64,000 nucleotides of DNA from Thermoleophilia bacterium. GTDB taxonomy: Bacteria; Actinomycetota; Thermoleophilia; UBA2241. This document shows, piece by piece, positions 1,027 through 14,697 of the stretch; position 1 is the stretch's first letter; each line of letters starts with the position of its first letter. The notes below the pieces were generated by a model. It did not search any database. It had not been told where the DNA came from and was given only the letters and a program-made list of their open reading frames with translations. Both the position numbers and the translations under genes were made by a program. The stretch is taken from NCBI GenBank assembly GCA_041393415.1, contig JAWKKE010000001.1:520366-584365 (forward strand), read 5' to 3'.

Positions 1027-3171
1027 CTACGCCGCCGGCAGGCGGCCAAACTCGCCGATCCGGCCGATGAGGCCGGCGATCGCGGCGAGCTGCGCGAGTC
1101 TGTTGGCGCGTACCGCGGCGTCCGAGTCCATGACGAGAACGGCCTCGAAGTACGCGTCCACGGCCGGGCGCAGACCGGCCGCATGGTCGAGCGCCGCGGC
1201 GATGTCGAGGCGCGCGAGAGCGTCGTTCAGCGGCCCCTCCGCGACCGCGAACGACGCCGCCAGCGCGCCTTCGGCAGCGTCGCGGAAGAGCGTCTTGTCG
1301 ACGCCGCGCAGCGCGGCGTTCGGATCCTTGGCCGCCAGCGCGGCGCAACGGTTGTACGCGAGTACAGTCTCGTCGAGCGCGCTGGTGCCCGCCGCGGCGG
1401 CAATAGCGCGCGCCCGTGACGCCAGCGCCGGCATGTCGACGACGCGCGCGCCCAGCGCCGCCTCGACGCTCGCGAAGGGAAGTCCCTCGTCGAGTAGTGC
1501 GACTTCGAGGCGCTCGCGAATGAACGCCGCCGTCTCGGCGACGATCTCGGCACGCCGATCGTCGTCGGCAGGCAGTGCCCCCTGCAACTCGAACTGGCGC
1601 ACCGCCGCCTCGAGCAGACCGTCGAGCGGGAAGCGCAGGTGGTAAGCAAGTGCATTGCGCACAATGCCCATGGCCGCGCGCCGCAGTCCGTACGGATCGC
1701 GCGAACCCGACGGCTTCTGCCTGGCCACCCAGGCGCCGACGATGTTGTCGATCTTGTCGGCCACGGCAAGCATTGCGCCGGCCAGCGTTGTCGGCAGCGG
1801 CGCCGTCGCCGAGAGCGGACGGTAGTGCTCGCCGACGGCTTGCGCGACCTCGTCACCGGCTCCGCCGGCGGTTGCGTAAAGACCGCCCATGATGCCCTGC
1901 AGCACCGGGAACTCGATCACGACGTGACTGACGAGATCGGCCTTGGCAAGGCGAGCGGCGTCGTGCAGCGTCTGCGCCAAGGCGGAGCCGCCGTCCACCG
2001 CGGACTCGGCAGCCAGCTCGGCGACCAGGTTCTCGAGACGTCGCGACTTGTCGGCAAGCGAACCGAGCTTCTCGTGGAAGACGACCGCGTCGAGGCGTTC
2101 GGACATCGCCCCCAACCCTTCGGCGACGTCGCGGTCGAAGGCGAACTCGGCGTCGTCCAGCCGACCTTCGAGGACCTGCTGATTGCCGCGCGTGACGAGC
2201 GGGGCCGCCTGCGGACCGGCGTTGCCGACGTAGAGGAACGCCGGCAGCAGGCCGCCGTCGGCGTCGCGCAGCGGGAAGTACCGTTGGTGACTCTGCATGG
2301 CGGTCACAAGCACCGAGTCCGGGAGCCGCAAGTGTAGTTCCGCGAAACCGCCCGTCGCAACAGTCGGCCATTCCGTGAGATAGACGGCTTCCGAGAGCAC
2401 GTCACCCGGATCTGACCACGTGCCGCCGGCGGCCGCAGCAGCCGCGTCGAGTCCTGCGACGATGCGCTGCCGCCGATCGTGCTGCGACGCAATCACGGAC
2501 TGCTCGGCGAGCAAGGAGACGTAGTTCTCGGCGTGATCGATGACCACCGGAGCGCCCAGCACCCGGTGACCTTGTGAGAGATCGCCGATCGGCAGGTCAT
2601 AGAAGGTGCCGCCGATCGTGTCGCCGTCGAACTTGCAGACGAGCCAGCGGATGGGGCGCGAGAAGCGAAGGAAATCGTCGGCGCCCTCCGGCCGCCGCCC
2701 CCAACGCATGCCGCGCGGAATCTGAAGACTCGTGATGAGCCGTCCCACGAGATCGGGGAGCACTTCGGCGGTCGGGCGCCGCGACGCCTCAACGCGCACG
2801 ACGGCGAACTCGGTGCCGTCGACAACTTCACGCCGCACGTCTCCCGGAGCCGCGCCACGAGAGCGTGCAAAGCCTTCGCCGGCCTTCGTGAGCTGACCGT
2901 CCGGCCCGAAAGCGACCTCGGCCTTCGGACCCCGAAACTCGTCGACTTTCGCCGTCTGCTCTTCAGGAACACCGCGGACCTGCACGGCGATGCGCCGCGG
3001 CGACACGTAGACGGCGAGATCGGGCGCAGACGCGGAGAGAAGGCGGTTCTCCGTCAGCAGTTTCGCAACGACGCCCGGATCCTCGGCCGTCCCCTCGAGC
3101 TGGCGAATGACCGACTCACACACTTTGTAGGGCAGCTCTTCGCAGCCCACTTCGATGAGGAGCGTGCTCAT
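1027..3171 (-). CDS. glyS: Glycine--tRNA ligase beta subunit
   Basis: 714-aa ORF starting [16 protein letters not shown]..., typical GlyS N-terminus. Start overlaps glyQ stop by 4 nt (ATGA), consistent with a glyQS operon. Confidence 0.9.
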
Positions 3172-4127
3172 CGACCCGCCTCCTCGCCGGCATCGGTCGC
3201 GCCGTCGTCGGCTTCGCGTTCGGCAGCCACCTCAAGGTACATGTCGGCGGTCTTGCGCGCCAGGTCGCGGACGCGGCCGATGTGCATGGTGCGGTCGGTC
3301 ACGCTGATGACGCCGCGTGCATCGAGCATGTTGAAGGCGTGACTACACTTCAACACGTGATCGTAGGCGGGCAGCGGCAGCCGAGCCTGCAGACAGCGCT
3401 CGGCCTCGGCCTCGTACTCGCGGAAGTGGCGATACAGCATCTCGGTGTCGGCGACCTCGAAGTTGTAGTGGCTGAACTGGCGCTCGTTCTCCTGATACAC
3501 GTCGCCGTACGTGATGGTCACGGTCTTGCCGTCTTCTTCCCACTGCGACCAGACGAGGTCGAAGACGTTGTCGACGCCCTGCAGATACATCACCAGACGC
3601 TCGAGACCGTACGTGAGCTCAACCGTGATGGGATCGAGGTCGAAACCGCCGAGCTGCTGGAAGTACGTGAACTGTGTCGCCTCCATGCCGTCGATCCAGA
3701 CCTCCCAGCCCAAACCCCAGGCACCCAGCGTCGGTCCCTCCCAGTTGTCTTCGACGAAGCGCACGTCGTGCTCGCGAAGATCGATCCCGAGCGCCACCAA
3801 CGACTGCAGGTAGAGATCTTGGATGTTCGGCGGCGACGGCTTGATCACGACTTGGTACTGGTAATAGTGGCCGAGTCGATAGGGATTCTCGCCGTATCGT
3901 CCGTCCGCCGGTCGCATGCAGGGCTCGACGTATGCCGCTCTCCAGGGCTTTGCGTCGAGACAGCGCAGAAACGTTGCGGGATTGAACGTGCCGGCGCCGA
4001 CCTCCGTGTGGTACGGCTGTACGACGACGCACCCCTGCTCTTCCCAAAAAGCCTGCAAACGACGGATGGCCGACTGGAACGTGGACGTGTATTTGCGGGC
4101 GTCCTCCCCGCCTGCGTGCGCGCTCAT
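3168..4127 (-). CDS. glyQ: Glycine--tRNA ligase alpha subunit
   Basis: Highly conserved GlyQ core ([17 protein letters not shown]...[29 protein letters not shown]...). Start taken at internal ATG 4127 ([12 protein letters not shown]...), preceded by GGGAGG. The longer track ORF to 4298 is treated as an upstream extension. Confidence 0.88.
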
Positions 4128-4207
4128 GATCCTCCCGGGTAAGGGCGCCGATTCTAGCAGGGCAACGACCGGCGCCACAACGCTCGCGCCGCTCGCCGGC
4201 GCCGGCA

Positions 4208-5533
4208 GTGAGGTCAAGTGGTCGGTGTATCCTAAGATCGCGTTCGGACATCGACTGGAGAACTGCTGTGCCTCGCTTCGCTCGCGCCCACCTGCCAACT
4301 CAGGCTAATCTCGAGCAACTGCGAGAACGGGCGGTCGCCTTCGCCCAACACTCGCCGCGCGCGGCCGCCACCTGGAAGCAGTGGCGCATGGCGCGCGAAC
4401 ACGTCGAGTGGCAGGCGCGATTCCGCGGCCAGCGACACTCCCGCTTCCTCGTGCCCAGACGTGTCGTCTACGTCGCCCCGGAGCGGATTGTGGCCATCGC
4501 TCGAGGAGACTTCGCCCCGAGCGACCACTCGTGCCCAACCGAGATCTCGGGCGATTGGGATCTGCACCTGACACCCGCCGACAACGACGACTTCTACGAC
4601 GACCTGCGACTCGTCGCCGACGGCGGTTCCTGGAAGGAGACGCGCGTCTACAGACGCGCGCTGACGGCCATCGCGGACGAGGGGCTCTGGAACGGTGAGT
4701 ACTTCTCGGCAGAAGAGGTGGATGAGTACTTCTGCGCACCATACGACAACCTTCTGGCGTCCATGCGCCGCTACGGCTACTTGGCCCAACGCGACCTGGC
4801 GGCCGCGATCCCGCGCTGGTATCGCCCACTCCACGCCGACGAGGTGACCCTGGCGATTGGCCGCGACGGCGCGCTCTTCGTCCGCGAAGGCCGGCATCGC
4901 GTGGCGTGTGCCGCCGTGCTCGGCATCCCCGCCATCCCGGCGCGAGTGTTCTTCCGTCACTCAGACTGGATGGCGACCCGCGAGCTCGCCGAGGCATACG
5001 CGCAGCAACTCGGCGGCATGGCGCCGCAACCCACACTGCACCCGGATCTCGACAACATTCCGGCCCCACCGAGCTGTGACGCCGTACTCGCCGCAACCTG
5101 CGCCGCCCTGCGCAGCGCCGGCGGCGCTCTCGTCGATCTCACACCGAGTTGGGGCTACTACTGTCGGCGGCTTGAAGACATTGGATTCCCGAGCACGGCG
5201 CTCGCCAGTAACGGCGAGTCGGACGAGTTCCTGCACGCCCTGCGGGTGACACAGGCAGCGACCTTCGCGACCGCGCGTGCACACGACGCTGCCGCGCACC
5301 CTGCCTTCGCGGTGGGAGTAGCGCTCGACCCCGCGTACTTGGGACTCGGCGCCGAGCGACGACTGCTCGACCTTCTGTCAACAGTGGCGCTTGACGAACT
5401 CGTGCTCGCCGTCCCGGCAGCCTCCGCGGAGGCGTGGGACTTAGCAGCCGTGGCGCGCGCCGGTCACTTCACGACACGCGTCGAACTGCCGGCGCCGGCC
5501 GGCGCTACGCGACTGCACCACTTCGTACGCTAG
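4208..5533 (+). CDS. Hypothetical protein with central ParB/Sulfiredoxin-like (ParB N-terminal nuclease-type) domain; function unknown
   Basis: 441-aa ORF with non-repetitive composition. Segment [38 protein letters not shown] fits the ParB/Srx GxxR...AA...G..IP motif pattern. The C-terminal roughly 160 aa are unassigned. Start uncertain: alternatives are GTG near 4268 and ATG 4388. Confidence 0.5.
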
Positions 5534-5543
5534 ACCGCGAAGG

Positions 5544-6338
5544 TTACCCGTCCGGCCCCAGTGCCCGCGGCGCCGTGTACTGGTGGTCGGCGGCGCGGGC
5601 AAAGTGCAGCGCCCGCAAACGTGTTCCGGTGTGGTACTGGTAGAGATTGTGAAGATGACGCAGCCCCTCGGCGGCAGCGGGCTGCGGCTCCACCGTTGCC
5701 AGTTCCGAGAGCGGCCGCTCGAGCACCTCACGCATCAAGACGACGGCGGCCGCAGTCACGGGCACGGCATCGCCAAGGCAGTCGCGACAGACGAGGCCGC
5801 CCTGGGCGGCAGAGAAGCCGAGGCCGCGCTCGCCACCCCCACAAGCAGCGCAGTGTTCGAGAATCGGCATGTAGCCGGCGGCGTAGAGCAGCTTGAGCAG
5901 GACGCCGAGAAGCAGAGGCGCCTCCAGGGCCGACCCGGCGAAGCCGCGATCGATCGTCGTCAGCGCATTGCGCAGGAGAGCGAAGACGCGTTCCTCCGGC
6001 TCATGCATCGCCACCAGCCCGGCAACGGCCTCACAAGCGACGGAGGCTGCGATAAGGCAGTCACGGTCGCTCAAGAGCCGCGGAAACACGTCCACGGTCT
6101 GAGCCTGCGTAACGGTATACAGAGAACGGCCGTGGTGGAGCACCAGGTCACACACGTTGAACGGCTCCAGACGGCCACCCCACCTGGAGTTGGTCTTGCG
6201 CACACCCTTGACGACCGCATCCACGCGCCCCAGCTCGCGCGTATAGAGACGCAGGATACGATCGGCCTCGCCCAGCGGACGCGACGCGAGCACGACGACG
6301 CGCGCCTTCACCTGGGGAGGCACTAGGCCTCCCCACAT
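5544..6338 (-). CDS. recO: DNA repair protein RecO
   Basis: PPQVKARVVVLASRPLGEADRILRLYTRELGRVDAVVKGVRKTNSRWGGRLEPF... matches the RecO N-terminal OB-fold region, and a Cys-rich zinc region (CAACGGG...CRDC) follows. Exact start uncertain. Confidence 0.8.
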   Translation of the reverse strand: MWGGLVPPQVKARVVVLASRPLGEADRILRLYTRELGRVDAVVKGVRKTNSRWGGRLEPFNVCDLVLHHGRSLYTVTQAQTVDVFPRLLSDRDCLIAASVACEAVAGLVAMHEPEERVFALLRNALTTIDRGFAGSALEAPLLLGVLLKLLYAAGYMPILEHCAACGGGERGLGFSAAQGGLVCRDCLGDAVPVTAAAVVLMREVLERPLSELATVEPQPAAAEGLRHLHNLYQYHTGTRLRALHFARAADHQYTAPRALGPDG

Positions 6339-7250
6339 GGAGACTCGGCACTCGGTTCCTGGGCGCGAGAAGACATGGAGGACGAGCCTGCATCGACACG
6401 ACGTGCGAACACAACGCGGGCCAATCCGCCGAGATCGTTTCGTCGCTGCACGGCCGGGAACCGACCTGTGGCGGAGAACAGCGCGGCCACCGCGTCCGCC
6501 TCGCCCCAGCCGACTTCCACCGCGAGACCGCCGCCGGGACGCAGGCGGGCGGCGGCAGCCGGAATCAGAAGCCTGTAGACGTCGAGGCCGTCGCCGCCGC
6601 CGTACAGGGCGAGGCGCGGCTCGTAGTCGCGCACGTTCGGCTCGAGAGCGTCGTACTCCGCCGCCGGGATGTACGGTGGATTGCTGACGATCACATCGAA
6701 GCGTCGGTCAGACGGAAGGGCCGCAAACAGATCGCTGCGCATGAAGCTGACGCGTGCGGTGAGGCCGTGGTGGGCCGCGTTGCGGCGGGCCACGGCCAGC
6801 GCCTCCTCGTCGACGTCGACCGCGAGCACGCGTACGGTCGGATTCTCGGCCGCCAGCGCCAGAGCCACACAGCCGGAGCCGGTCCCGACATCAAGTATCT
6901 GCGGCTCCGGCACCGCCGAGTCGGTTGTCGCAGCGACAAACTCGAGCGCGACATCGACCAGCGTCTCCGTCTCTGGCCTGGGGATGAGCACCGCCGGCGT
7001 CACCTCGAGATCCAGCGTACGGAAGGTGCGCACTCCGCGAATGTAGGCGACGGGCTCATGCGCCTCACGACGTCGCAGATACCCCTCGAAACGCACGGCC
7101 TGCTCGACACCGAGCTCCACTTCAGGCGCCCGAAAGAGCGCCGTGCGATCGACGCCCAGTGCCGTCGCCAGCAGGAGTTCGGCGTCCAAACGCGGTGAAC
7201 GCGAACCGCCGGCGCGGAGACGCTGCGCCGCAGCGCGCAACGACTCGGCG
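6323..7250 (-). CDS. prmC: Release factor glutamine N5-methyltransferase PrmC/HemK
   Basis: Contains LDVGTGSGCVALALA (SAM motif I) and the NPPY catalytic motif (VSNPPYIPAAEY). Located immediately downstream of prfA. Start not resolved (no in-frame ATG near ALNVAESLRAAAQRL), so the 5' boundary is approximate. Confidence 0.8.
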
Positions 7251-7262
7251 ACGTTCAGTGCC

Positions 7263-8348
7263 TCACCCTCCCCCCGCGGCGGCGAGCTGCTTGCGCCGGT
7301 CCTCCGCCGCCAATGCCTCGGTGAATTCGTCAAGCTCGCCCTCGAGCACCTCGGCCAAGCGGTGGCTGGTAAGGCCGATGCGATGATCGCTGACGCGGTT
7401 CTGCTGGAAGTTGTAGGTGCGGATCTTCTGCGACCGATCGCCGCTGCCGACCATACTGCGCCGCGCCGACGCCTGTTCCGCGTCTTGCCGCTCGCGCTCG
7501 GCCTCGTAGAGGCGCGCCCTGAGAATCCGGAGGGCGCGCTCCTTGTTCTGCAGTTGGCTCTTCTCATCCTGACAGCTCACCACGAGCCCGGTCGGTAGAT
7601 GCGTCACGCGAACGGCCGAATCGGTGGTGTTGACGCTCTGCCCTCCCGGTCCACGCGCCCGGAACACGTCGATCTGGAGATCGTTTGGGTGAATCTCGAT
7701 CTCGATTTCCTCCGCCTCGGGCAGCACCGCGACCGTGGCGGTCGACGTGTGGATGCGGCCCGCGGCCTCCGTGGCCGGGACCCGCTGGACGCGGTGCACG
7801 CCGCTCTCGTACTTGAGCGTCGAATACGCGCCTTGGCCGCGCACCTCGAGAGTGATCTCTTTGTAGCCGCCGTCGTCGTTCTCGTTGGCGCTCAGCATCT
7901 CGACCGCAAAGCCCTTGGCCTGGGCGTAGCGTGTGTACATGCGCGTCAGGTCGGCGGCGAACAGCGACGCCTCGTCGCCCCCGGTGCCGGCGCGAATCTC
8001 GATGATCACGTCCTTGGCGTCGTTGGGATCACGCGTCACCATGCGCACGCGAATCTCCTCACTCAGTTCGTCGAGGGCGTGACGTCCCACGACCAGCTCT
8101 TCTTGAGCGAAGGCGCGCATCTCCGCGTCCGTCGACGTATCACCGAGAAGGGCTTCGGCATCGGTGACCGTCTGCTGCGCCTCACGATACCGGCGCGTGA
8201 GTTCGTACGCCGGCTGCAGTTCGGCGTGCTTGCGCGCCGCATCGGCGAAGCGCCCGCGGTCGGCGAGAAGTTCGGGATCGGCAAGCTGCGCGTTGAGGTC
8301 GTGGAACGAGCGCTCGATTTCTTCGATGAGGTTCTCGATAGCGGCCAT
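7263..8348 (-). CDS. prfA: Peptide chain release factor 1
   Basis: 361 aa with RF1 hallmarks: PATEAAGRIHTSTATVAVLPE (tripeptide anticodon region) and GGQ motif (RARGPGGQSVNTTDSAVRVTHLPTG). Confidence 0.95.
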   Translation of the reverse strand: MAAIENLIEEIERSFHDLNAQLADPELLADRGRFADAARKHAELQPAYELTRRYREAQQTVTDAEALLGDTSTDAEMRAFAQEELVVGRHALDELSEEIRVRMVTRDPNDAKDVIIEIRAGTGGDEASLFAADLTRMYTRYAQAKGFAVEMLSANENDDGGYKEITLEVRGQGAYSTLKYESGVHRVQRVPATEAAGRIHTSTATVAVLPEAEEIEIEIHPNDLQIDVFRARGPGGQSVNTTDSAVRVTHLPTGLVVSCQDEKSQLQNKERALRILRARLYEAERERQDAEQASARRSMVGSGDRSQKIRTYNFQQNRVSDHRIGLTSHRLAEVLEGELDEFTEALAAEDRRKQLAAAGGG

Positions 8349-8357
8349 GGACAGAGT

Positions 8358-9311
8358 CTACGCCATGACCTCGACGCCCTTCTCCGGCGGCTTGTCCTGT
8401 GGCTCGAGCTCGATGATCTTCTCCAGAGCCGCGATCGCTACCTCGACCTGGGCTCTGTCTGGCTTGCGAGTCGTGAGCCACTGCAGAGCCAACCCGGGCG
8501 CCATGATCGCGCGCACGACGGCACTGCCCTCGTGGCGCCCGGCAAACTTGATGATCTCGTAGCTGATGCCGGCGATGAGCGGCACGAGCACAATGCGACT
8601 GAGGATCAGGAGATACCAGGCCGGCCACTGCACGATGGCGAAGACGAGGATACTCACGACCATCACGACGAGGAGAAACGAGGTACCGCAACGCAGATGC
8701 AGCGTCGTGTACTTCTGAACGTTCTCGGGGATGAGTTCCTCGTCGTGCTCGAGCGCGTGGATGCTCATGTGCTCGGCACCGTGGTACTCGAAGACGCGGC
8801 GAAGGTCCCTGAGCTGAGTAACGGCGACGATGTAGCCGACGAAGATGACCACACGGACGAGGCCCTCAACGAGCCAGAAGACCATGCCGTCGCCGATGTG
8901 CGACTTGAGCAGACCGGTGAGAAAGAGCGGGAGGAGGAAGAAGAGCCCGATCGCCGCCGAAATGGCGATGACGAGCGTTATCCCCATCTCCTTCTTCGTG
9001 AACTCGGCTTCCTCTTCGCCGAGAGACTCGTTCGCCGAGATCGACAGTGCGCGCATGCCTAGGACCAGCGACTCGCCGAGCGCGGCGACACCGCGTATCA
9101 CCGGGAGCTTGAGAATCGGATACGCCTTCATCCAGCTCACAAGAGGGAAGGCATGCAGCGCGATCGTGTCGTCGGGTCGCCGCACGGCAACGGACCAGTT
9201 GCTGACGCCGCGCATCATGACGCCCTCGAGTACCGCTTGGCCGCCGACCTGAGCGCGGCGCGCCTCGAGCAGCGAGACGGCCAGCAGAGGGAGTAGTGCG
9301 AGGCCTCTCAC
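8358..9311 (-). CDS. DUF1385 (YqhQ-like) membrane protein, conserved neighbour of prfA
   Basis: Conserved GGQAVLEGVMMRG N-terminal motif and multiple TM segments. Start taken at GTG 9311, whose GTGA overlaps the stop of the upstream thyX. The track ORF extends to 9485 in the same frame. Confidence 0.72.
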   Translation of the reverse strand: MRGLALLPLLAVSLLEARRAQVGGQAVLEGVMMRGVSNWSVAVRRPDDTIALHAFPLVSWMKAYPILKLPVIRGVAALGESLVLGMRALSISANESLGEEEAEFTKKEMGITLVIAISAAIGLFFLLPLFLTGLLKSHIGDGMVFWLVEGLVRVVIFVGYIVAVTQLRDLRRVFEYHGAEHMSIHALEHDEELIPENVQKYTTLHLRCGTSFLLVVMVVSILVFAIVQWPAWYLLILSRIVLVPLIAGISYEIIKFAGRHEGSAVVRAIMAPGLALQWLTTRKPDRAQVEVAIAALEKIIELEPQDKPPEKGVEVMA

Positions 9312-10045
9312 CCTGCAACCGTGACGGGAGTGTCGACGTCTTGCGGGCGATACGGCCGGCCGCACGTCATCTTGCCCTCGCCACACTCGCCGTACAGGCA
9401 ATTTGGCCCGGTGCCCTCGAACAAGCCGGGCGACACCGCGCGAACCATGCTGCGCATGCGCCACGCGAGGTCGTTGATCTCCCACTGAGCACGCCGGCAG
9501 CAGCGCACCTGGAAGAAGTGACGGAGCTCGCGCGCGTTCATCGTCACCACGATCTTGGTCTCGGCGGCGTTGGGCAGAACAAACCGCGCGTCTTCCTGAA
9601 CACTCTCGCGCGTGCGACCTTCGGCAAGGCCGAGCTCGACCAGCTTGTCGTACGCGCCGCGCGCCTGCTCCATGGCCGCCAGGAAGACTCTCTCGGCCTC
9701 CGGATTGGCGCCGATACTCGGCGGCACGACGAAACTGTCGCGCTGCCCGAAGTTCACGTATCGCTGTGACTGCTGGTTGTAGCTCGCGAGACGGTGGCGC
9801 ACGATCTGGTGCGTGCAGGCTCGACTCACGCCGTCGATGGCGAAGGTGAACGACGCGTGCTCAAGGGCGGAGTGGTGCCCGGAGCGCACCAGGATACGCA
9901 CGAGCTTGGCGACGTCCGCGTCGCTCATCTCCTGCTGAAGCTCGGCCGCCGACACCGGTGCATAGCAGAGCCGGCCGGCGATGGCGACCGCCCGATCCGG
10001 GTCTGGAGTGTACTGCAGGAGCGTGACGCTGAGGCGCGCGCTCAC
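9308..10045 (-). CDS. thyX: FAD-dependent thymidylate synthase ThyX
   Basis: ThyX signature RHRLASYNQQSQRY (RHRxxSxxxxSxRY). Start taken at GTG 10045, preceded by GGAGGCGGC. The track ORF is extended upstream to 10168 by an Arg/Ser-rich tail. Confidence 0.85.
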   Translation of the reverse strand: MSARLSVTLLQYTPDPDRAVAIAGRLCYAPVSAAELQQEMSDADVAKLVRILVRSGHHSALEHASFTFAIDGVSRACTHQIVRHRLASYNQQSQRYVNFGQRDSFVVPPSIGANPEAERVFLAAMEQARGAYDKLVELGLAEGRTRESVQEDARFVLPNAAETKIVVTMNARELRHFFQVRCCRRAQWEINDLAWRMRSMVRAVSPGLFEGTGPNCLYGECGEGKMTCGRPYRPQDVDTPVTVAG

Positions 10046-11931: not shown

Positions 11932-14697
11932 TCAGGGAACGGATGCCGTCTGCAGATGCCCTTTACCATGTGCCTCCGGCCGCGCTTCCAGCCAAGAGAG
12001 CACCGCCGCGGCAGGCATGGGGCGGGCAATGTGGAAGCCCTGAGCCGCATCACACCCGAGTCCGCCGAGCATGTCGAGCGACGCCTCGTCTTCCACGCCC
12101 TCGGCCACCACCTTGAGCCCGAGATCCTGTCCCAGGCCGATCGTCGATCGTACGATGGCGGCGTCGCTGGTGTCGGTCGCCATGCGCTGAACGAACGATC
12201 GCTCGATCTTGAGATGAGTCACCGGCAGCCGCTGCAGATAGGCCAGCGACGAGTATCCGGTGCCGAAATCGTCGACGGCGACCGAGACACCGAGTTCCGA
12301 GAGACGTGCGAGCGTCTCCCGCGCGCGCTGCGGGTCCGTCATGATGCTGCCTTCGGTGACCTCGATCGTGAGCAGCGACGGCTCCACGCCGTGCTCGAGA
12401 CACAACGCCTGCAACGTCTCGAGCACCTGATGATCGTGGAGATTGCGCGCCGAGAGATTGATGCTCACCGCGACCTCATACCCGTGCTCCTGCCACGCGG
12501 CGATCTGCCGCACGACCTCGCCGACGAGCCAGAGGGTGAACGGCAGGATAAGCCCGGTCTCCTCCATGAGCGGAATGAACTCCGAAGGTCCGACACCGCT
12601 CAGCTCGTCATCTTGCCAGCGAGCCAGAGCCTCGACCGCAACAAGCCGTCTTCGCCGCACGTCGACGATCGGCTGGTAGTGCAGCGTGAAGTGGTTTGCG
12701 CGCAGTGCCTCGCGCAGACGTGACAGCAAGTGCAGGCGGTAGACGCTGTGCGGGTCCTCCTGTTGCGAGTAAAGACGCGGGCTTTCGCCCGATCGCTTCG
12801 CAACGTACATCGCGACGTCGGCGCTACGCAGAAGGCTGTGCGCGTCGGTTCCGTGATCGGGATACGTCGCGATCCCGACACTCGCCTGCAACTCGAACTG
12901 CATGTCGTCTACTTCGACCGGTGCCTCGAGGGCACGGAGAATGCGCTGAGCACCATCGCCGGCCGCGCTTGCGGAGGCGTTGGGCATGAACACCGCAAAC
13001 TCGTCTCCGCCCAGACGGGCGATCGTATCCGTGGAACGCACCATCGCCTGGAAGCGCGTGCTCAGCTCATGAAGGACGACGTCACCGACGTGATGACCGT
13101 AGGTGTCGTTGACCTCCTTGAAGCGGTCGAGATCGATGATGAGCAGGGCATGCTCATCGAGTACGCCCCGACCGCCACCGATCGCCTGGTTCATCCGCTC
13201 GTAGAGCAGCGTACGGTTGGGGAGCTCGGTGAGATTGTCGTGCAATGCTTGATACCGCAGAACCGTCTCCCACTGCGTGCGCTCCGTCACGTCACGAGCG
13301 ATGCCCTGTATGGCGACGATTTCACCGTCGCGGGTGAGCGGGCTCAGGCTGGTCTCGATCTCGACTTCGTGCCCATCTTTGGCGACAAGTGTCAGGCTGA
13401 AGACACCCTCTGGGGCGACCGAAGCAACCTGTTCCAGGCACGTCACGACCGCCGCTACATCCGCGACGGGCACGAGATCGCTCACATTCGCCCCTTGGAG
13501 CTCCTCGTTCGTGTAACCCAGCGCGGTCAAAGCGGCTCCATTGGCGGATTCAACTCGACCATCCGGCTTCAGCGTGAAGACGAAGTCGGTCGCGTTCTCG
13601 AACAGAGCGCGATACCGCGCCTCGCTTTCACTCAGAGCCAGTTCCGCCTTGCGACGGCTGGTCATGTCGCGAATCACGACGATATGCCCCGACTCTTCGT
13701 GTCCGATCTCAGAGGCGAGAAGGTCGAAGTGCCGGCGTCCTTCACCATCGTCCACTGTGGCCTGCGCACGCTGCCGTCCGGCTCCAGAGAACAGGTCGCC
13801 GAGGTTCACACCGCCAATCGCAAGTTGTGTCGCAGACTGACCTATGATCGCCGCGGCAGGCAGATCGAAGACATCGACCGCCGCCGGATTGACGTCGGCC
13901 ACTCGCCCGGCCGCGTCTACCACCACGACGCCGTCCGCCATGCCCTCGATGGCCGCGCCACGTGCCACAGGCACGAGTCCCACGAAGATGTCCAGAATGC
14001 GGAAGCGCAGTAGGCCTATGGCGAAGAGAAGACACGAGATCGACAACACGAACGGCGTCATGTCGATCTCGCGACGAGGCTGGAGATCGGCGAGGTAGAG
14101 CACGTTGGCGACAAGCGGCAGCGCCAGTCCCACGAGGATAACGGTCGTCTGGGTGCGATGGAGCTGCCGCGAGCGAATCGCCATGCGCACCAGCAGTGCG
14201 GCACCAAAGAGAAGCACGCCGTATGAGTAAGCCGTATGCACCCAGAACCAGGTACTGAAACCGGGTGAGAACGCCGGCGTGCCGGCACCCGGCGTCGTGC
14301 GCAGATCTTGCCAAACGAGGTGGTGCCATCCGTCGGTGAAGACCAGAACGATCGTGATCGCGGGCACTACCAGCAACATGACCCACTCTCGACGACCAAA
14401 GCGCGTTGTCGCACCCGAGTACTCAGCGCAGAACACAAACCACGCGACGGGCATGAACACGATGCCCAGGTACGACACCTTGGTCCACCACATGTCCCCC
14501 GACGCACCGACGCTCGAGATCGCCAGCGCGTAGGCAGTGGACCACACGAAGAGCCCGACTGCCATGGCGGCAAACGGTCGGGCCCCAGGGACAGCGAGCC
14601 GCCGGGCGCCCATGACGGCAACCAACAAGGCTATGACCGCTCCAAACCAGAGCGGCAACGTCGAGACGACGAAGTCTAGACCCGAAGGCACCGGCAA
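11932..14697 (-). CDS. Membrane sensor diguanylate cyclase/phosphodiesterase (TM sensor, PAS, GGDEF, EAL)
   Basis: 921 aa. The N-terminal roughly 300 aa are multi-TM. PAS-like segments follow, then a GGDEF motif (RLGGDEFAVFMP) and an EAL motif (EALARWQ...). The C-terminal DDFGTGYSSL is typical of the EAL domain. Confidence 0.85.
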   Translation of the reverse strand: MPVPSGLDFVVSTLPLWFGAVIALLVAVMGARRLAVPGARPFAAMAVGLFVWSTAYALAISSVGASGDMWWTKVSYLGIVFMPVAWFVFCAEYSGATTRFGRREWVMLLVVPAITIVLVFTDGWHHLVWQDLRTTPGAGTPAFSPGFSTWFWVHTAYSYGVLLFGAALLVRMAIRSRQLHRTQTTVILVGLALPLVANVLYLADLQPRREIDMTPFVLSISCLLFAIGLLRFRILDIFVGLVPVARGAAIEGMADGVVVVDAAGRVADVNPAAVDVFDLPAAAIIGQSATQLAIGGVNLGDLFSGAGRQRAQATVDDGEGRRHFDLLASEIGHEESGHIVVIRDMTSRRKAELALSESEARYRALFENATDFVFTLKPDGRVESANGAALTALGYTNEELQGANVSDLVPVADVAAVVTCLEQVASVAPEGVFSLTLVAKDGHEVEIETSLSPLTRDGEIVAIQGIARDVTERTQWETVLRYQALHDNLTELPNRTLLYERMNQAIGGGRGVLDEHALLIIDLDRFKEVNDTYGHHVGDVVLHELSTRFQAMVRSTDTIARLGGDEFAVFMPNASASAAGDGAQRILRALEAPVEVDDMQFELQASVGIATYPDHGTDAHSLLRSADVAMYVAKRSGESPRLYSQQEDPHSVYRLHLLSRLREALRANHFTLHYQPIVDVRRRRLVAVEALARWQDDELSGVGPSEFIPLMEETGLILPFTLWLVGEVVRQIAAWQEHGYEVAVSINLSARNLHDHQVLETLQALCLEHGVEPSLLTIEVTEGSIMTDPQRARETLARLSELGVSVAVDDFGTGYSSLAYLQRLPVTHLKIERSFVQRMATDTSDAAIVRSTIGLGQDLGLKVVAEGVEDEASLDMLGGLGCDAAQGFHIARPMPAAAVLSWLEARPEAHGKGHLQTASVP

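Follow-up and report, generated by a model that had tools for sequence, protein, structure and literature searches.

What is encoded by a gene that carries a ParB-type motif and stands alone between two housekeeping blocks? The question was raised by an earlier note on the window (the whole 64,000-nucleotide stretch of Thermoleophilia DNA analysed here), which reported a 441-aa ORF between the glyQS and recO-prmC-prfA blocks; the annotation agreed with this placement. The ORF at 4208-5533, 441 codons when counted from GTG 4208, was found on the plus strand. Judged from the sequence, however, the true start is most likely GTG 4268, giving a product of 421 aa (Table 1). This shorter product was identical over its full length to the NCBI entry 'MAG: hypothetical protein R2826_02355 [Thermoleophilia bacterium]'. 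The GC content at the three codon positions was 0.74/0.52/0.79, which resembled that of the neighbouring genes and differed from that of overlapping alternative ORFs, and the base composition of the gene was that of its flanks. The window gene is real and coding. A promoter and terminator scan at the gene returned no candidates.

Table 1. Features of the window gene and of the genes on either side, in window coordinates.
Feature	Position	Strand	Basis
glyQ (glycine-tRNA ligase alpha), flanking gene, divergent from the window gene	3168..4127	-	annotation
Mechanical ORF as given in the earlier note	4208..5533	+	ORF list/translation
GGAG Shine-Dalgarno-like element, 7 nt upstream of GTG 4268	4257..4260	+	read from sequence
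Likeliest gene, 421 aa, GTG start, TAG stop 5531-5533	4268..5533	+	sequence, NCBI match, codon-position GC
N-terminal pair of long helices, residues 12-54, variable within the family	4301..4429	+	AF2 model, domain identities
Predicted ParB/Srx-like nucleotide-binding/phosphotransfer domain, residues ~58-250	4439..5017	+	profiles, hhalign, AF2
GDWD motif; candidate catalytic or metal-binding acidic site	4550..4561	+	family alignment
IGRDG ... REGRHR block with GxxR 'P motif' (G208, R211), equivalent of ParB Box II	4856..4900	+	alignment, profiles
RHSDW motif, directly after the fourth strand; R in 128/132, H and W invariant	4955..4969	+	family alignment
HPDLD linker motif between the two domains; H invariant, D in 131/132	5039..5053	+	family alignment
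Class I (Rossmann) methyltransferase-fold domain, residues ~266-421, degenerate cofactor site	5063..5530	+	profiles, AF2, fold search
Degenerate motif I (family consensus LLDIGAxWGYF)	5129..5158	+	family alignment
recO, flanking gene, convergent with the window gene; glyQ directly follows recO in relatives	5544..6338	-	annotation, synteny

The neighbours of the gene were glyQS, recO, prmC, prfA, DUF1385 and thyX, with prmC and then prfA following past recO. Because recO lies on the minus strand, it is convergent with the window gene, and the stop codon of the latter (TAG 5531-5533) was separated by 10 nt from that of recO (end at 5544); the stop does not overlap the recO start, as had been claimed. 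No homologue of the window gene was found in any of 59 relatives' loci (0/59), and the order prmC-recO-glyQ(-glyS) was colinear in all 48 of the loci that extend to glyQ, with recO and glyQ on the same strand and 68-1178 nt apart. No relics of the gene turned up in the relatives' recO-glyQ gaps (best E 0.05). It follows that the window gene is an antisense insertion specific to this lineage in an otherwise conserved prmC-recO-glyQ-glyS array, bearing out the suggestion that it is a lineage-specific accessory gene, and the recO-glyQ junction is a variable site. The search for repeats flanking the insertion gave GC-rich matches at chance level only, none of them convincing. Around the window gene, neither a polysaccharide biosynthesis cluster nor a glycan partner gene was found.

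The earlier note had described a central ParB N-terminal-type motif (a 24-residue peptide at nt 4877-4948) and left the regions on both sides unassigned. The motif proved genuine and is the best-conserved stretch in a family of 236 representatives. The flanking regions could, however, be assigned to one ParB/Srx-like domain and to a class I methyltransferase fold that had been missed. Pfam had no match to the window protein even at E<=10, and whole-protein scans with Pfam, NCBIfam and PADLOC returned no model at its threshold. Pfam ParBc (PF02195) had no significant match in any member, and 39 N-domains gave single weak matches to DndB and ParBc_2. By contrast, phrog_26387 'ParB-like partition nuclease' was matched by 15 of 39 members (best E 3.6e-4) and five more ParB-like PHROGs were matched. 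The NCBIfam SbnI model was matched by 12 of the 39 N-domains (best E 2.2e-4) and SerK by two, all below the equivalog cut-off; the N-domain of the window protein itself matched neither.

When the N-domain profile was compared with the PDB, the top three matches were all SbnI (E 0.006, 0.006 and 0.023), with an alignment that spanned dGellfvdGrHRlaiAklLgiekiPvrv of the profile. The program hhalign placed the family's DGxHR on GGCHR of Srx and GERRFR of Spo0J, at low probability and against single approximate sequences, and this placement is taken as supporting evidence only. An AF2 model built from a 66-sequence alignment was confident over both domains; a 3-sequence alignment gave a pLDDT of 43 and was discarded. 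The modelled domain consisted of a first strand, a helical insert (nt 4583-4807) and a beta-beta-alpha-beta core, the core running as strand-strand-helix-strand through residues 193-231 (E193-197, E203-207, H209-217, E223-231). In three fold searches, the matches were dominated by the methyltransferase domain, and no superposition of the N-domain on a ParB/Srx structure emerged. The weak but repeated sequence matches and the predicted model assign residues ~58-250 to the ParB/sulfiredoxin fold. An HTH and a ParB C-terminal dimerisation domain were absent from the window protein in both Pfam and the AF2 model, as the earlier note had stated.

Conservation across 132 family representatives was concentrated in short motifs. 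In GDWD, the G was kept in 125/132, the W in 129/132 and the second D in 126/132. The GxxR of the window protein reads G208-R-H-R211, and its G and R were retained in 127/132 and 129/132 representatives. E207 of the window protein stands in place of the usual Asp of DGxHR, a position occupied by Asp in 83, Glu in 15 and Asn in 17 of the 132. All family-invariant residues of the N-domain were retained in the window protein.

The C-terminal half was compared with WbdD of E. coli O9a, a bifunctional kinase-methyltransferase that caps the O-antigen with methyl-phosphate. The methyltransferase domain of WbdD was the top PDB profile match (E 5e-6) and the top Foldseek match of the C-domain, so that two of three methods nominally rank it first among solved structures. 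A Pfam scan of 66 members gave matches to Methyltransf_11/12/23/25/31, CMAS and similar models, and no match to N6_N4_Mtase, MT-A70 or Dam. In WbdD, R36 and D82 bind SAM, and H132 and H133 contact phosphate (PMC3482155). Four features of the cofactor site were scored accordingly: the equivalents of R36, the motif I Gly, D82 and the HH pair. The single canonical member that was used to extend the WbdD alignment to R203 gave no WbdD match. All four features were present in 55 of 132 representatives; the window protein had V, T, A and no HH at these positions, scoring 0/4. Its motif I reads DLTPSWGY compared with DIGAxWGY in the family, and the end of strand 2 reads STALA compared with CTAVE. The monophyletic window clade of nine representatives likewise scored 0/4, and there were about 17 separate low-score clades among the representatives. 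The methyltransferase domain of the window protein appears to be dead or vestigial, with the fold kept and the cofactor site lost, and this half of the gene should not be annotated as active.

The nearest homologues of the window gene were 45% identical and no closer alleles were found. Synonymous sites were saturated because of this distance, and selection was gauged by domain-wise identity in place of dN/dS. Within the window clade, identity was 51% in the ParB-like domain and 36% in the methyltransferase-like domain, compared with 33% and 30% elsewhere in the family.

Word-index homologue searches gave 3, 4 and 12 proteins; the family size of 236 cluster representatives (E<=1e-30) came from an exhaustive HMM search. 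The family comprises hundreds of 50%-identity clusters, none covered by a curated model, and this two-domain combination of a ParB/Srx-like domain with a methyltransferase fold is undescribed and unnamed. About half of the informative loci lay inside polysaccharide or glycan gene clusters, and roughly half of the loci sampled, that of the window included, had no glycan neighbours. Nine glycan loci of relatives (L002, L003, L004, L008, L009, L011, L074, L077 and L078/79) exemplified the former. The recurrent neighbours were glycosyltransferases, flippases, Wzy/Wzz, sugar epimerases and methyltransferases, and the clusters were mostly of the Wzx/Wzy type, not ABC-transporter O-PS clusters. Stand-alone N-domain proteins were also found in glycan clusters. 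Cultured carriers of homologues included Paenibacillus cellulositrophicus KACC 16577 (WP_152403578.1, plasmid locus GCU45_RS30285) and Halobaculum, with genes on plasmids; one Halobaculum homologue is P0M86_RS17155 of H. lipolyticum.

Given where its relatives lie, the window gene product probably modifies sugars and is probably neither a DNA nuclease nor a defence protein. The characterised HTH-less enzymes of the ParB/Srx fold (Srx, SerK and SbnI) transfer a phosphoryl group from a nucleotide. Because they do so, and because the canonical genes sit in polysaccharide operons, we infer phosphorylation of a sugar or glycan. In canonical members, both domains look active. The ParB/Srx domain would use ATP to phosphorylate a hydroxyl of a sugar, glycan or lipid-linked intermediate, after which the new phosphate, or a group next to it, would receive a methyl group from the methyltransferase domain. 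These two steps would resemble those of WbdD, but the kinase module would not be homologous to that of WbdD. In the window clade, the ParB/Srx domain would be the only possible catalytic part because all four of the scored cofactor features of the methyltransferase have been lost, and the methyltransferase-like domain may serve as a scaffold or substrate-binding module. We tentatively propose that the window gene product is a soluble two-domain protein that quite possibly transfers phosphate from ATP to a sugar or glycan, its methyltransferase domain being vestigial. Here NTP use, kinase chemistry, the substrate and any role in the window genome are putative.

The ParB fold here might just as well serve as a switch gated by a nucleotide, with no kinase role. 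As a complete account, such a regulator would bind ATP or CTP through the ParB/Srx-like domain to switch the attached methyltransferase or a partner enzyme, with no kinase activity of its own; the window copy would sense nucleotides, and its C-domain would be structural. The conserved GxxR P motif is consistent with this, and ParB-fold enzyme fusions, including an ATP-binding SAM-methyltransferase fusion, have been read as possibly regulatory (PMC12704722). However, the N-domain remained invariant through repeated losses of the catalytic features of the methyltransferase, and stand-alone N-domain proteins occur among glycan genes. A pure regulator of the fused methyltransferase is disfavoured because it would not outlive the methyltransferase. 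The nearest curated families, SbnI and SerK, are also enzymes and not clamps, and we consider the account unlikely.

It is more doubtful still that the gene is a functionless remnant, acquired horizontally and decaying in the window genome. The orphan location with no partner genes, the dead methyltransferase site and the absence of the gene from all sampled relatives would suit a remnant. However, the 421-codon frame was intact with a host-like codon-position GC, every invariant N-domain residue was kept and the AF2 model was confident over both domains. The same motif-less architecture persisted in nine representatives that were only ~36-51% identical, pointing to long-term purifying selection.

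The earlier note had pointed towards a stand-alone ParB-like nuclease/CTPase of a defence or mobile-element module whose partner is missing, which we regard as very improbable. The ParB/Srx-like domain and the lineage-specific insertion fit this account, as does a 20-nt inverted repeat (90%) at 4190-4209 and 5485-5504; this repeat, however, was a GC-rich GCCGGCGCCGGC palindrome with one arm within the coding region. Neither the window protein nor P0002 and P0003, its two nearest homologues, matched any PADLOC model at E<=1, and no defence genes were found in the sampled neighbourhoods. No transposase, integrase or tRNA was present at the insertion site, the protein has no HTH, and the base composition did not depart from that of the flanks; an IS adjoined one locus (L001). 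The canonical member P0038 had no phage homologues, and its plasmid matches were all non-mobilizable megaplasmids bearing glycan genes. The recurrent neighbours in relatives are glycan genes, and the closest curated relatives of the N-domain are serine kinases, not nucleases. For annotation, the labels partition, nuclease and defence all look wrong for the window gene. That the protein methylates DNA or RNA, guided by a ParB-type domain as in the ParB-N6/N4-methyltransferase fusions of phages and bacteria, is barely credible, as members matched small-molecule-type models (Methyltransf_11/12/23/25, CMAS) and never the nucleic-acid models, phage homologues of P0038 were not found, the neighbours are glycan genes and the window copy has none of the SAM-site residues.

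Recent work treats the ParB fold as a general module for binding NTPs, far from confined to chromosome segregation. To our knowledge, only three of its enzymatic uses have been characterised (Srx, SerK and SbnI). If phosphotransfer is the correct reading, a ParB fold with a methyltransferase in polysaccharide operons would be a fourth, in glycan decoration, and would account for genes annotated as 'hypothetical' in numerous loci for EPS, capsule and archaeal glycosylation. It is conceivable, though doubtful, that the family represents a first sighting of widespread ParB/sulfiredoxin-fold glycan or sugar kinases, canonically fused to a WbdD-like phosphate methyltransferase. Such kinases would be a non-homologous replacement of the WbdD kinase module, placing phosphate or methyl-phosphate on exopolysaccharides, S-layer glycans or N-glycans of Gram-positive bacteria, myxobacteria and archaea, and the window clade would be kinase-only with its dead methyltransferase as a substrate-binding scaffold. 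Paenibacillus and Halobaculum offer a cultured entry point to the family.

Among known systems, the canonical CTP-dependent DNA clamps ParB, Spo0J, Noc and KorB share the N-terminal fold and the GxxR position with the window protein. However, the latter has no HTH, C-terminal dimerisation domain or GERRxRA box, and its gene has no ParA partner, adjacent parA or parS and lies away from any origin or plasmid partition locus. A PNAS 2025 survey described fusions of the ParB-CTPase fold to Methyltransf_23 and SAM-dependent methyltransferases; they were enriched in phages and read as DNA-modification or anti-defence proteins, and one bacterial fusion (Alphaproteobacteria UBA3002) binds ATP via GxxR (PMC12704722). 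Their gross architecture, a ParB-type fold with a class I methyltransferase, is like that of the window family, which by comparison yielded no phage members and is undetected by Pfam ParBc.

Sulfiredoxin is an HTH-less ParB-fold enzyme that moves the gamma-phosphate of ATP to its substrate, and its GGCHR agrees in register with DGxHR. However, it is a single small domain, and its catalytic Cys is absent from the window protein. Srx occurs in eukaryotes and cyanobacteria, where it repairs peroxiredoxin. Among curated models and solved structures, the N-domain matched SbnI (S. aureus) and SerK (Thermococcus) best in sequence, although far below the NCBIfam cut-offs. Both are free L-serine kinases of the ParB/Srx fold that act on a small-molecule hydroxyl and have no DNA-clamp role. 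They share the strand-DGxHR-helix-strand core with the family, and SbnI D58, reportedly essential, aligns with the Asp of DGxHR, a position that is acidic in the window protein too (Glu207). In comparison, the family adds a helical insert of ~110 residues, the GDWD, RHxxW and HPDL motifs and the fused methyltransferase fold, and its context is glycan synthesis, not cysteine or siderophore synthesis; kinase activity in the family is presumed.

WbdD differs from the family in its reversed domain order and in its kinase, a protein kinase of eukaryotic-type fold with no homology to the ParB/Srx domain; neither Pfam nor the AF2 model revealed a Pkinase, APH or coiled-coil region in the window protein. 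The window copy also departs from WbdD in lacking all four cofactor features and in lying outside any polysaccharide cluster. However, canonical members share with WbdD the equivalents of R36, the G(A/C)xxG motif I, D82 and H132/H133, and the logic is alike, with what would be a phosphotransfer-type module in the family fused to a methyltransferase in a polysaccharide locus.

Because the G+C content of the window is ~67%, long spurious ORFs are common there. The ORF between glyQ and recO is coding, as the earlier note had held: its codon-position GC (0.74/0.52/0.79) agreed with that of glyQ, glyS and recO, alternative ORFs overlapping it had out-of-frame patterns, and the same protein is recorded at NCBI on a 1.04-Mb contig ('MAG: hypothetical protein R2826_02355 [Thermoleophilia bacterium]'), where it is 421 aa long and begins at a GTG (4268) with GGAG 7 nt to its 5' side. 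Its stop codon and that of recO are separated by 10 nt. Since recO is on the minus strand, the two genes are convergent; the overlap with the recO start described previously was an error, and nothing overlaps that start. The 487-aa ORF antisense to prfA had no Pfam match and a codon-position GC of 0.84/0.40/0.68; most likely it is spurious, a high-GC shadow ORF. The prmC ORF has 414 aa, with PrmC_N beginning only at residue 109. Alignments of most relatives begin at residue ~100-120, and those of six (L014, L034, L039, L044, L065 and L066) at residue 5-7; some of the lineage may therefore have a genuine N-terminal extension of ~100 aa, the alternative being a wrongly called start. A 921-aa signalling protein is encoded ~6 kb from the gene under study. 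Exopolysaccharide production is often under c-di-GMP signalling control.

Coordinates of features in the window and at related loci (L numbers)
Locus	Feature	Position	Strand	Remark
Window	glyS	1027-3171	-	neighbour
Window	glyQ	3168-4127	-	neighbour
Window	recO-glyQ gap	4128-5543		1416 nt
Window	inverted repeat, arms	4190-4209 / 5485-5504		
Window	gene under study	4208-5533	+	start likely at 4268
Window	ParB-type peptide of the earlier note	4877-4948		
Window	recO	5544-6338	-	neighbour
Window	prmC	6323-7567	-	neighbour
Window	prfA	7263-8348	-	neighbour
Window	487-aa ORF	7599-9062	+	antisense to prfA and DUF1385 gene
Window	DUF1385 gene, thyX			further neighbours
Window	7TM-PAS-GGDEF-EAL protein	11932-14697	-	
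L034	sugar epimerase	2482-3453	-	in recO-glyQ gap
L023	106-aa ORF	1412-1732	+	in recO-glyQ gap
L003	MttB-like protein and ATP-grasp enzyme	6321-9468		precede homologue
L008	Halobaculum lipolyticum N-domain gene	8947-9759		adjoins DUF1616

RecO was used as an anchor for 59 metagenomic loci of relatives (L014-L072; RecO identity 49-78% over the best segment). No homologue of the window gene was found at E<=1e-5 in any of them (0/59), bearing out the earlier suggestion of a lineage-specific accessory gene: it is a lineage-specific insertion. In the 48 loci that reach glyQ, recO and glyQ shared a strand and were separated by 68-1178 nt, with prmC upstream wherever the contig extended far enough (45/48) and glyS downstream wherever reached. 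RecO matched best over its full length in L014 and L022 (74-75% identity), and in both of these relatives the gap was empty and ~120 nt long. Several others (L017-L020, L023, L026 and L027) had gaps of 600-900 nt, and a search of the longer gaps found no remnants of the gene. In the window, the gene occupies the gap and runs antisense to the array. Across this Thermoleophilia-like group the junction varies. The window gene had no integrase, transposase or tRNA beside it, and its base composition was that of its flanks. The sole flanking repeat, a GC-rich 20-nt inverted repeat (arms CGCTCGCCGGCGCCGGCAGT and ACTGCCGGCGCCGGCCGGCG, 90% complementary), roughly brackets the gene; it is probably due to chance, because its core is the palindrome GCCGGCGCCGGC and one arm lies within the coding region.

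Other observations were made at this junction. A 323-aa Rossmann-type NAD-dependent epimerase, GalE-like by motif (TGGAGYVGS, PYGETK), lies in the gap of L034 (RecO 73%, GlyQ 91% identical), antisense to the array like the window gene, and is a second glycan-related gene at this position. The ORF in the L023 gap carries paired Cys/His motifs (CDECG...HLALHGH, CAFCG...HIEANH) and is zinc-finger-like. Relatives did not match the final ~14 residues of the window RecO, which is 264 aa long (3' end of recO at 5544-5590), their alignments mostly ending at residue 244-255; the insertion only 10 nt away may have remodelled this C-terminus.

The whole protein matched nothing in Pfam, NCBIfam or PADLOC even at permissive thresholds, and a word-index search recovered two homologues only (45% identity). 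When an exhaustive HMMER search was seeded with these three sequences, 3092 cluster representatives passed E<=1e-3; a threshold of E<=1e-10 left 1767, and one of E<=1e-30 left 236. Most were 380-450 aa long and aligned end to end. The protein thus belongs to a large family that curated libraries miss. The consensus of 66 members consisted of two blocks, WVxPxxI ... GDWD ... DEVxVxIGRxGxLLFxDGxHRLAIAKLLGxxxIPVxVxxRHxxW ... HPDL and LLDIGAxWGYFCHRFExxGFxCxAVE ... FDVVLALNxFHHFLK. An architecture of two folds is very probable.

The first block corresponds, with good confidence, to a ParB/Srx fold. When a profile of 39 N-domains was searched against PDB, the sole matches under E=0.1 were to SbnI, a free serine kinase of this fold (E 0.006, 0.006 and 0.023, over the motif core). 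Scanned singly, 12 of the 39 domains matched NCBIfam SbnI (best 2.2e-4), two matched SerK, and 15 matched PHROG 26387, 'ParB-like partition nuclease' (best 3.6e-4); five other ParB-like PHROGs were also matched. By hhalign, DGxHR registered at low probability with GGCHR of human sulfiredoxin (P=0.01) and GERRFR of B. subtilis Spo0J (P=0.002). The AF2 model, built with the 66-sequence alignment, was confident (pLDDT 90.8, pTM 0.86); its predicted strand (193-197), strand (203-207), helix (209-217) and strand (223-231) make up the ParB/Srx core, with the GxxR motif at the helix start. Across 132 near-full-length representatives, 95-100% conservation was found for G and R of GxxR, the H preceding that R, R and G of IGRxG, W and the second D of GDWD, RH..W, and H and D of HPDL. 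Two points count against the assignment: Pfam ParBc was never matched in scans of family members, and no three-dimensional superposition of the N-domain was obtained because the MTase domain dominated every fold search with the full model. The ParB motif of the earlier note stands as a ParB/Srx-like domain, not as a Pfam ParBc match, and its absence of HTH and ParB dimerisation regions was confirmed. Stand-alone N-domain proteins (218-283 aa) occur in metagenomes and on haloarchaeal megaplasmids, indicating that this domain is the core functional unit. Such 'hypothetical proteins' (~220-280 aa, no MTase) recur on megaplasmids of Halobaculum, Natrarchaeobaculum, Natronorubrum and Halorubrum (plasmid matches H1-H17).

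The C-terminal half has a class I methyltransferase fold, and this domain is dead in the window copy. In the E. coli kinase-methyltransferase WbdD, R36 and D82 contact SAM, and the enzyme owes its phosphate methyltransferase character to a phosphate site made up of H132, H133 and R203 (PMC3482155). By HMM alignment, the WbdD SAM and phosphate positions fell on xRF, the E of CxAVE and the HH of NxFHHF in the family. Generic Methyltransf_11/12 consensus sequences also contain HH; the motif is compatible with phosphate methylation, not diagnostic of it. Four features (R36-equivalent basic residue, first Gly of motif I, acid after strand 2, and HH) were scored in the 132 representatives: 55 retained all four and 31 at most one. 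None remained, HH included, in the window protein or in the eight representatives closest to it; these nine form a single clade in an N-domain NJ tree. Low-scoring sequences were spread over ~17 separate groups on this tree, indicating repeated loss of the MTase site from proteins whose N-domain remained intact. Identity of the ParB-like and MT-like domains was 51 and 36% inside the window clade and 33 and 30% outside it, showing that constraint on the MT-like domain is relaxed, not absent.

Polysaccharide or sugar-modification clusters made up nine of ~16 informative homologue loci; the remaining loci held unrelated genes or were too short.

Genes around family homologues in glycan-related loci
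Locus	Genes
L078/79	sulfotransferase, MTases, Wzx-type flippase, GT4, Wzy, homologue, GT4, GT2, Wza, Wzz/BY-kinase, CpsB
L003 (another Thermoleophilia MAG)	PGA_cap, GT1, ATP-grasp, homologue, Wzz/BY-kinase, flippase, pectate-lyase fold
L004 (Myxococcales)	MTases, PglD-like, GT1/GT4, homologue, GT2, GT4
L009 (Paenibacillus plasmid)	GT4, MTase, homologue, galactosyltransferase-related, other GTs
L008 (Halobaculum plasmid; N-domain only)	oxidoreductase, epimerase, flippase, GT, GNAT
L011 (N-domain only)	sugar dehydrogenases, epimerase, GT4, TupA-like ATP-grasp
L002	epimerase, beta-helix
L074 (window-clade member)	GT1 adjacent
L077	two sugar C-methyltransferase-like genes

A canonical member with both domains apparently active (P0038) had no match in a phage search and 17 plasmid matches, all non-mobilizable. 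A tblastn search of the 64-kb window with 14 glycan-cluster proteins of L003 and L004 found nothing. The pairing of an MttB-like protein (trimethylamine methyltransferase family, 667 aa) with an ATP-grasp enzyme, seen within the EPS cluster of L003, is unusual for a polysaccharide locus. DUF1616, next to the H. lipolyticum gene in its glycosylation cluster, also lies ~4 kb upstream of a Bathyarchaeota homologue (L005).

To our knowledge, the characterised HTH-less ParB/Srx-fold enzymes (Srx, SerK, SbnI) all move phosphoryl from a nucleotide to a substrate oxygen. ATP is bound through GxxR in a bacterial ParB-fold/SAM-MTase fusion (PMC12704722). The analysis establishes both folds, conservation of the GxxR site, a dead SAM site, the glycan surroundings of relatives and the insertion, and every functional step that follows is an inference. 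By analogy with these enzymes, the N-domain would most likely bind ATP and phosphorylate a hydroxyl, phosphotransfer being a tentative choice of chemistry. The glycan neighbours of homologues suggest that the acceptor may be a polysaccharide repeat-unit sugar or a lipid-linked intermediate, and a role of the family in glycan modification is likely. The WbdD-like MTase of canonical members could then methylate that phosphate or a nearby hydroxyl, methylation of the phosphate itself being rather doubtful. The window clade has lost this last step; its proteins would act solely as kinases, or else bind in an NTP-dependent manner, and the MT-like domain would serve as a scaffold. With no partner gene in sight, a specific function in this genome is uncertain.

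The window protein is not a canonical ParB, as it has no HTH, dimerisation domain, ParA or GERRxRA box. It is also not an SbnI or SerK orthologue, since those matches were far under cut-offs. The defence component suggested earlier was not supported: PADLOC gave no match, and the protein is no known defence component. The likeness to WbdD is confined to the MTase fold, with no homology elsewhere. ParB-fold/Methyltransf_23 fusions have been catalogued, reported as phage-enriched and read as DNA-modification proteins (PMC12704722). In contrast, the present family yielded no phage members in the search with P0038 and is unseen by Pfam ParBc. Nothing relevant came up when the literature was searched for ParB-like proteins in a polysaccharide setting. 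What is new here is the glycan context of a ParB/Srx-fold enzyme fused to an MTase, together with a derived MTase-dead clade. The window copy is an orphan, derived member of this family; for the family as a whole, the hypothesis has appeal and can be tested in organisms that are in culture.
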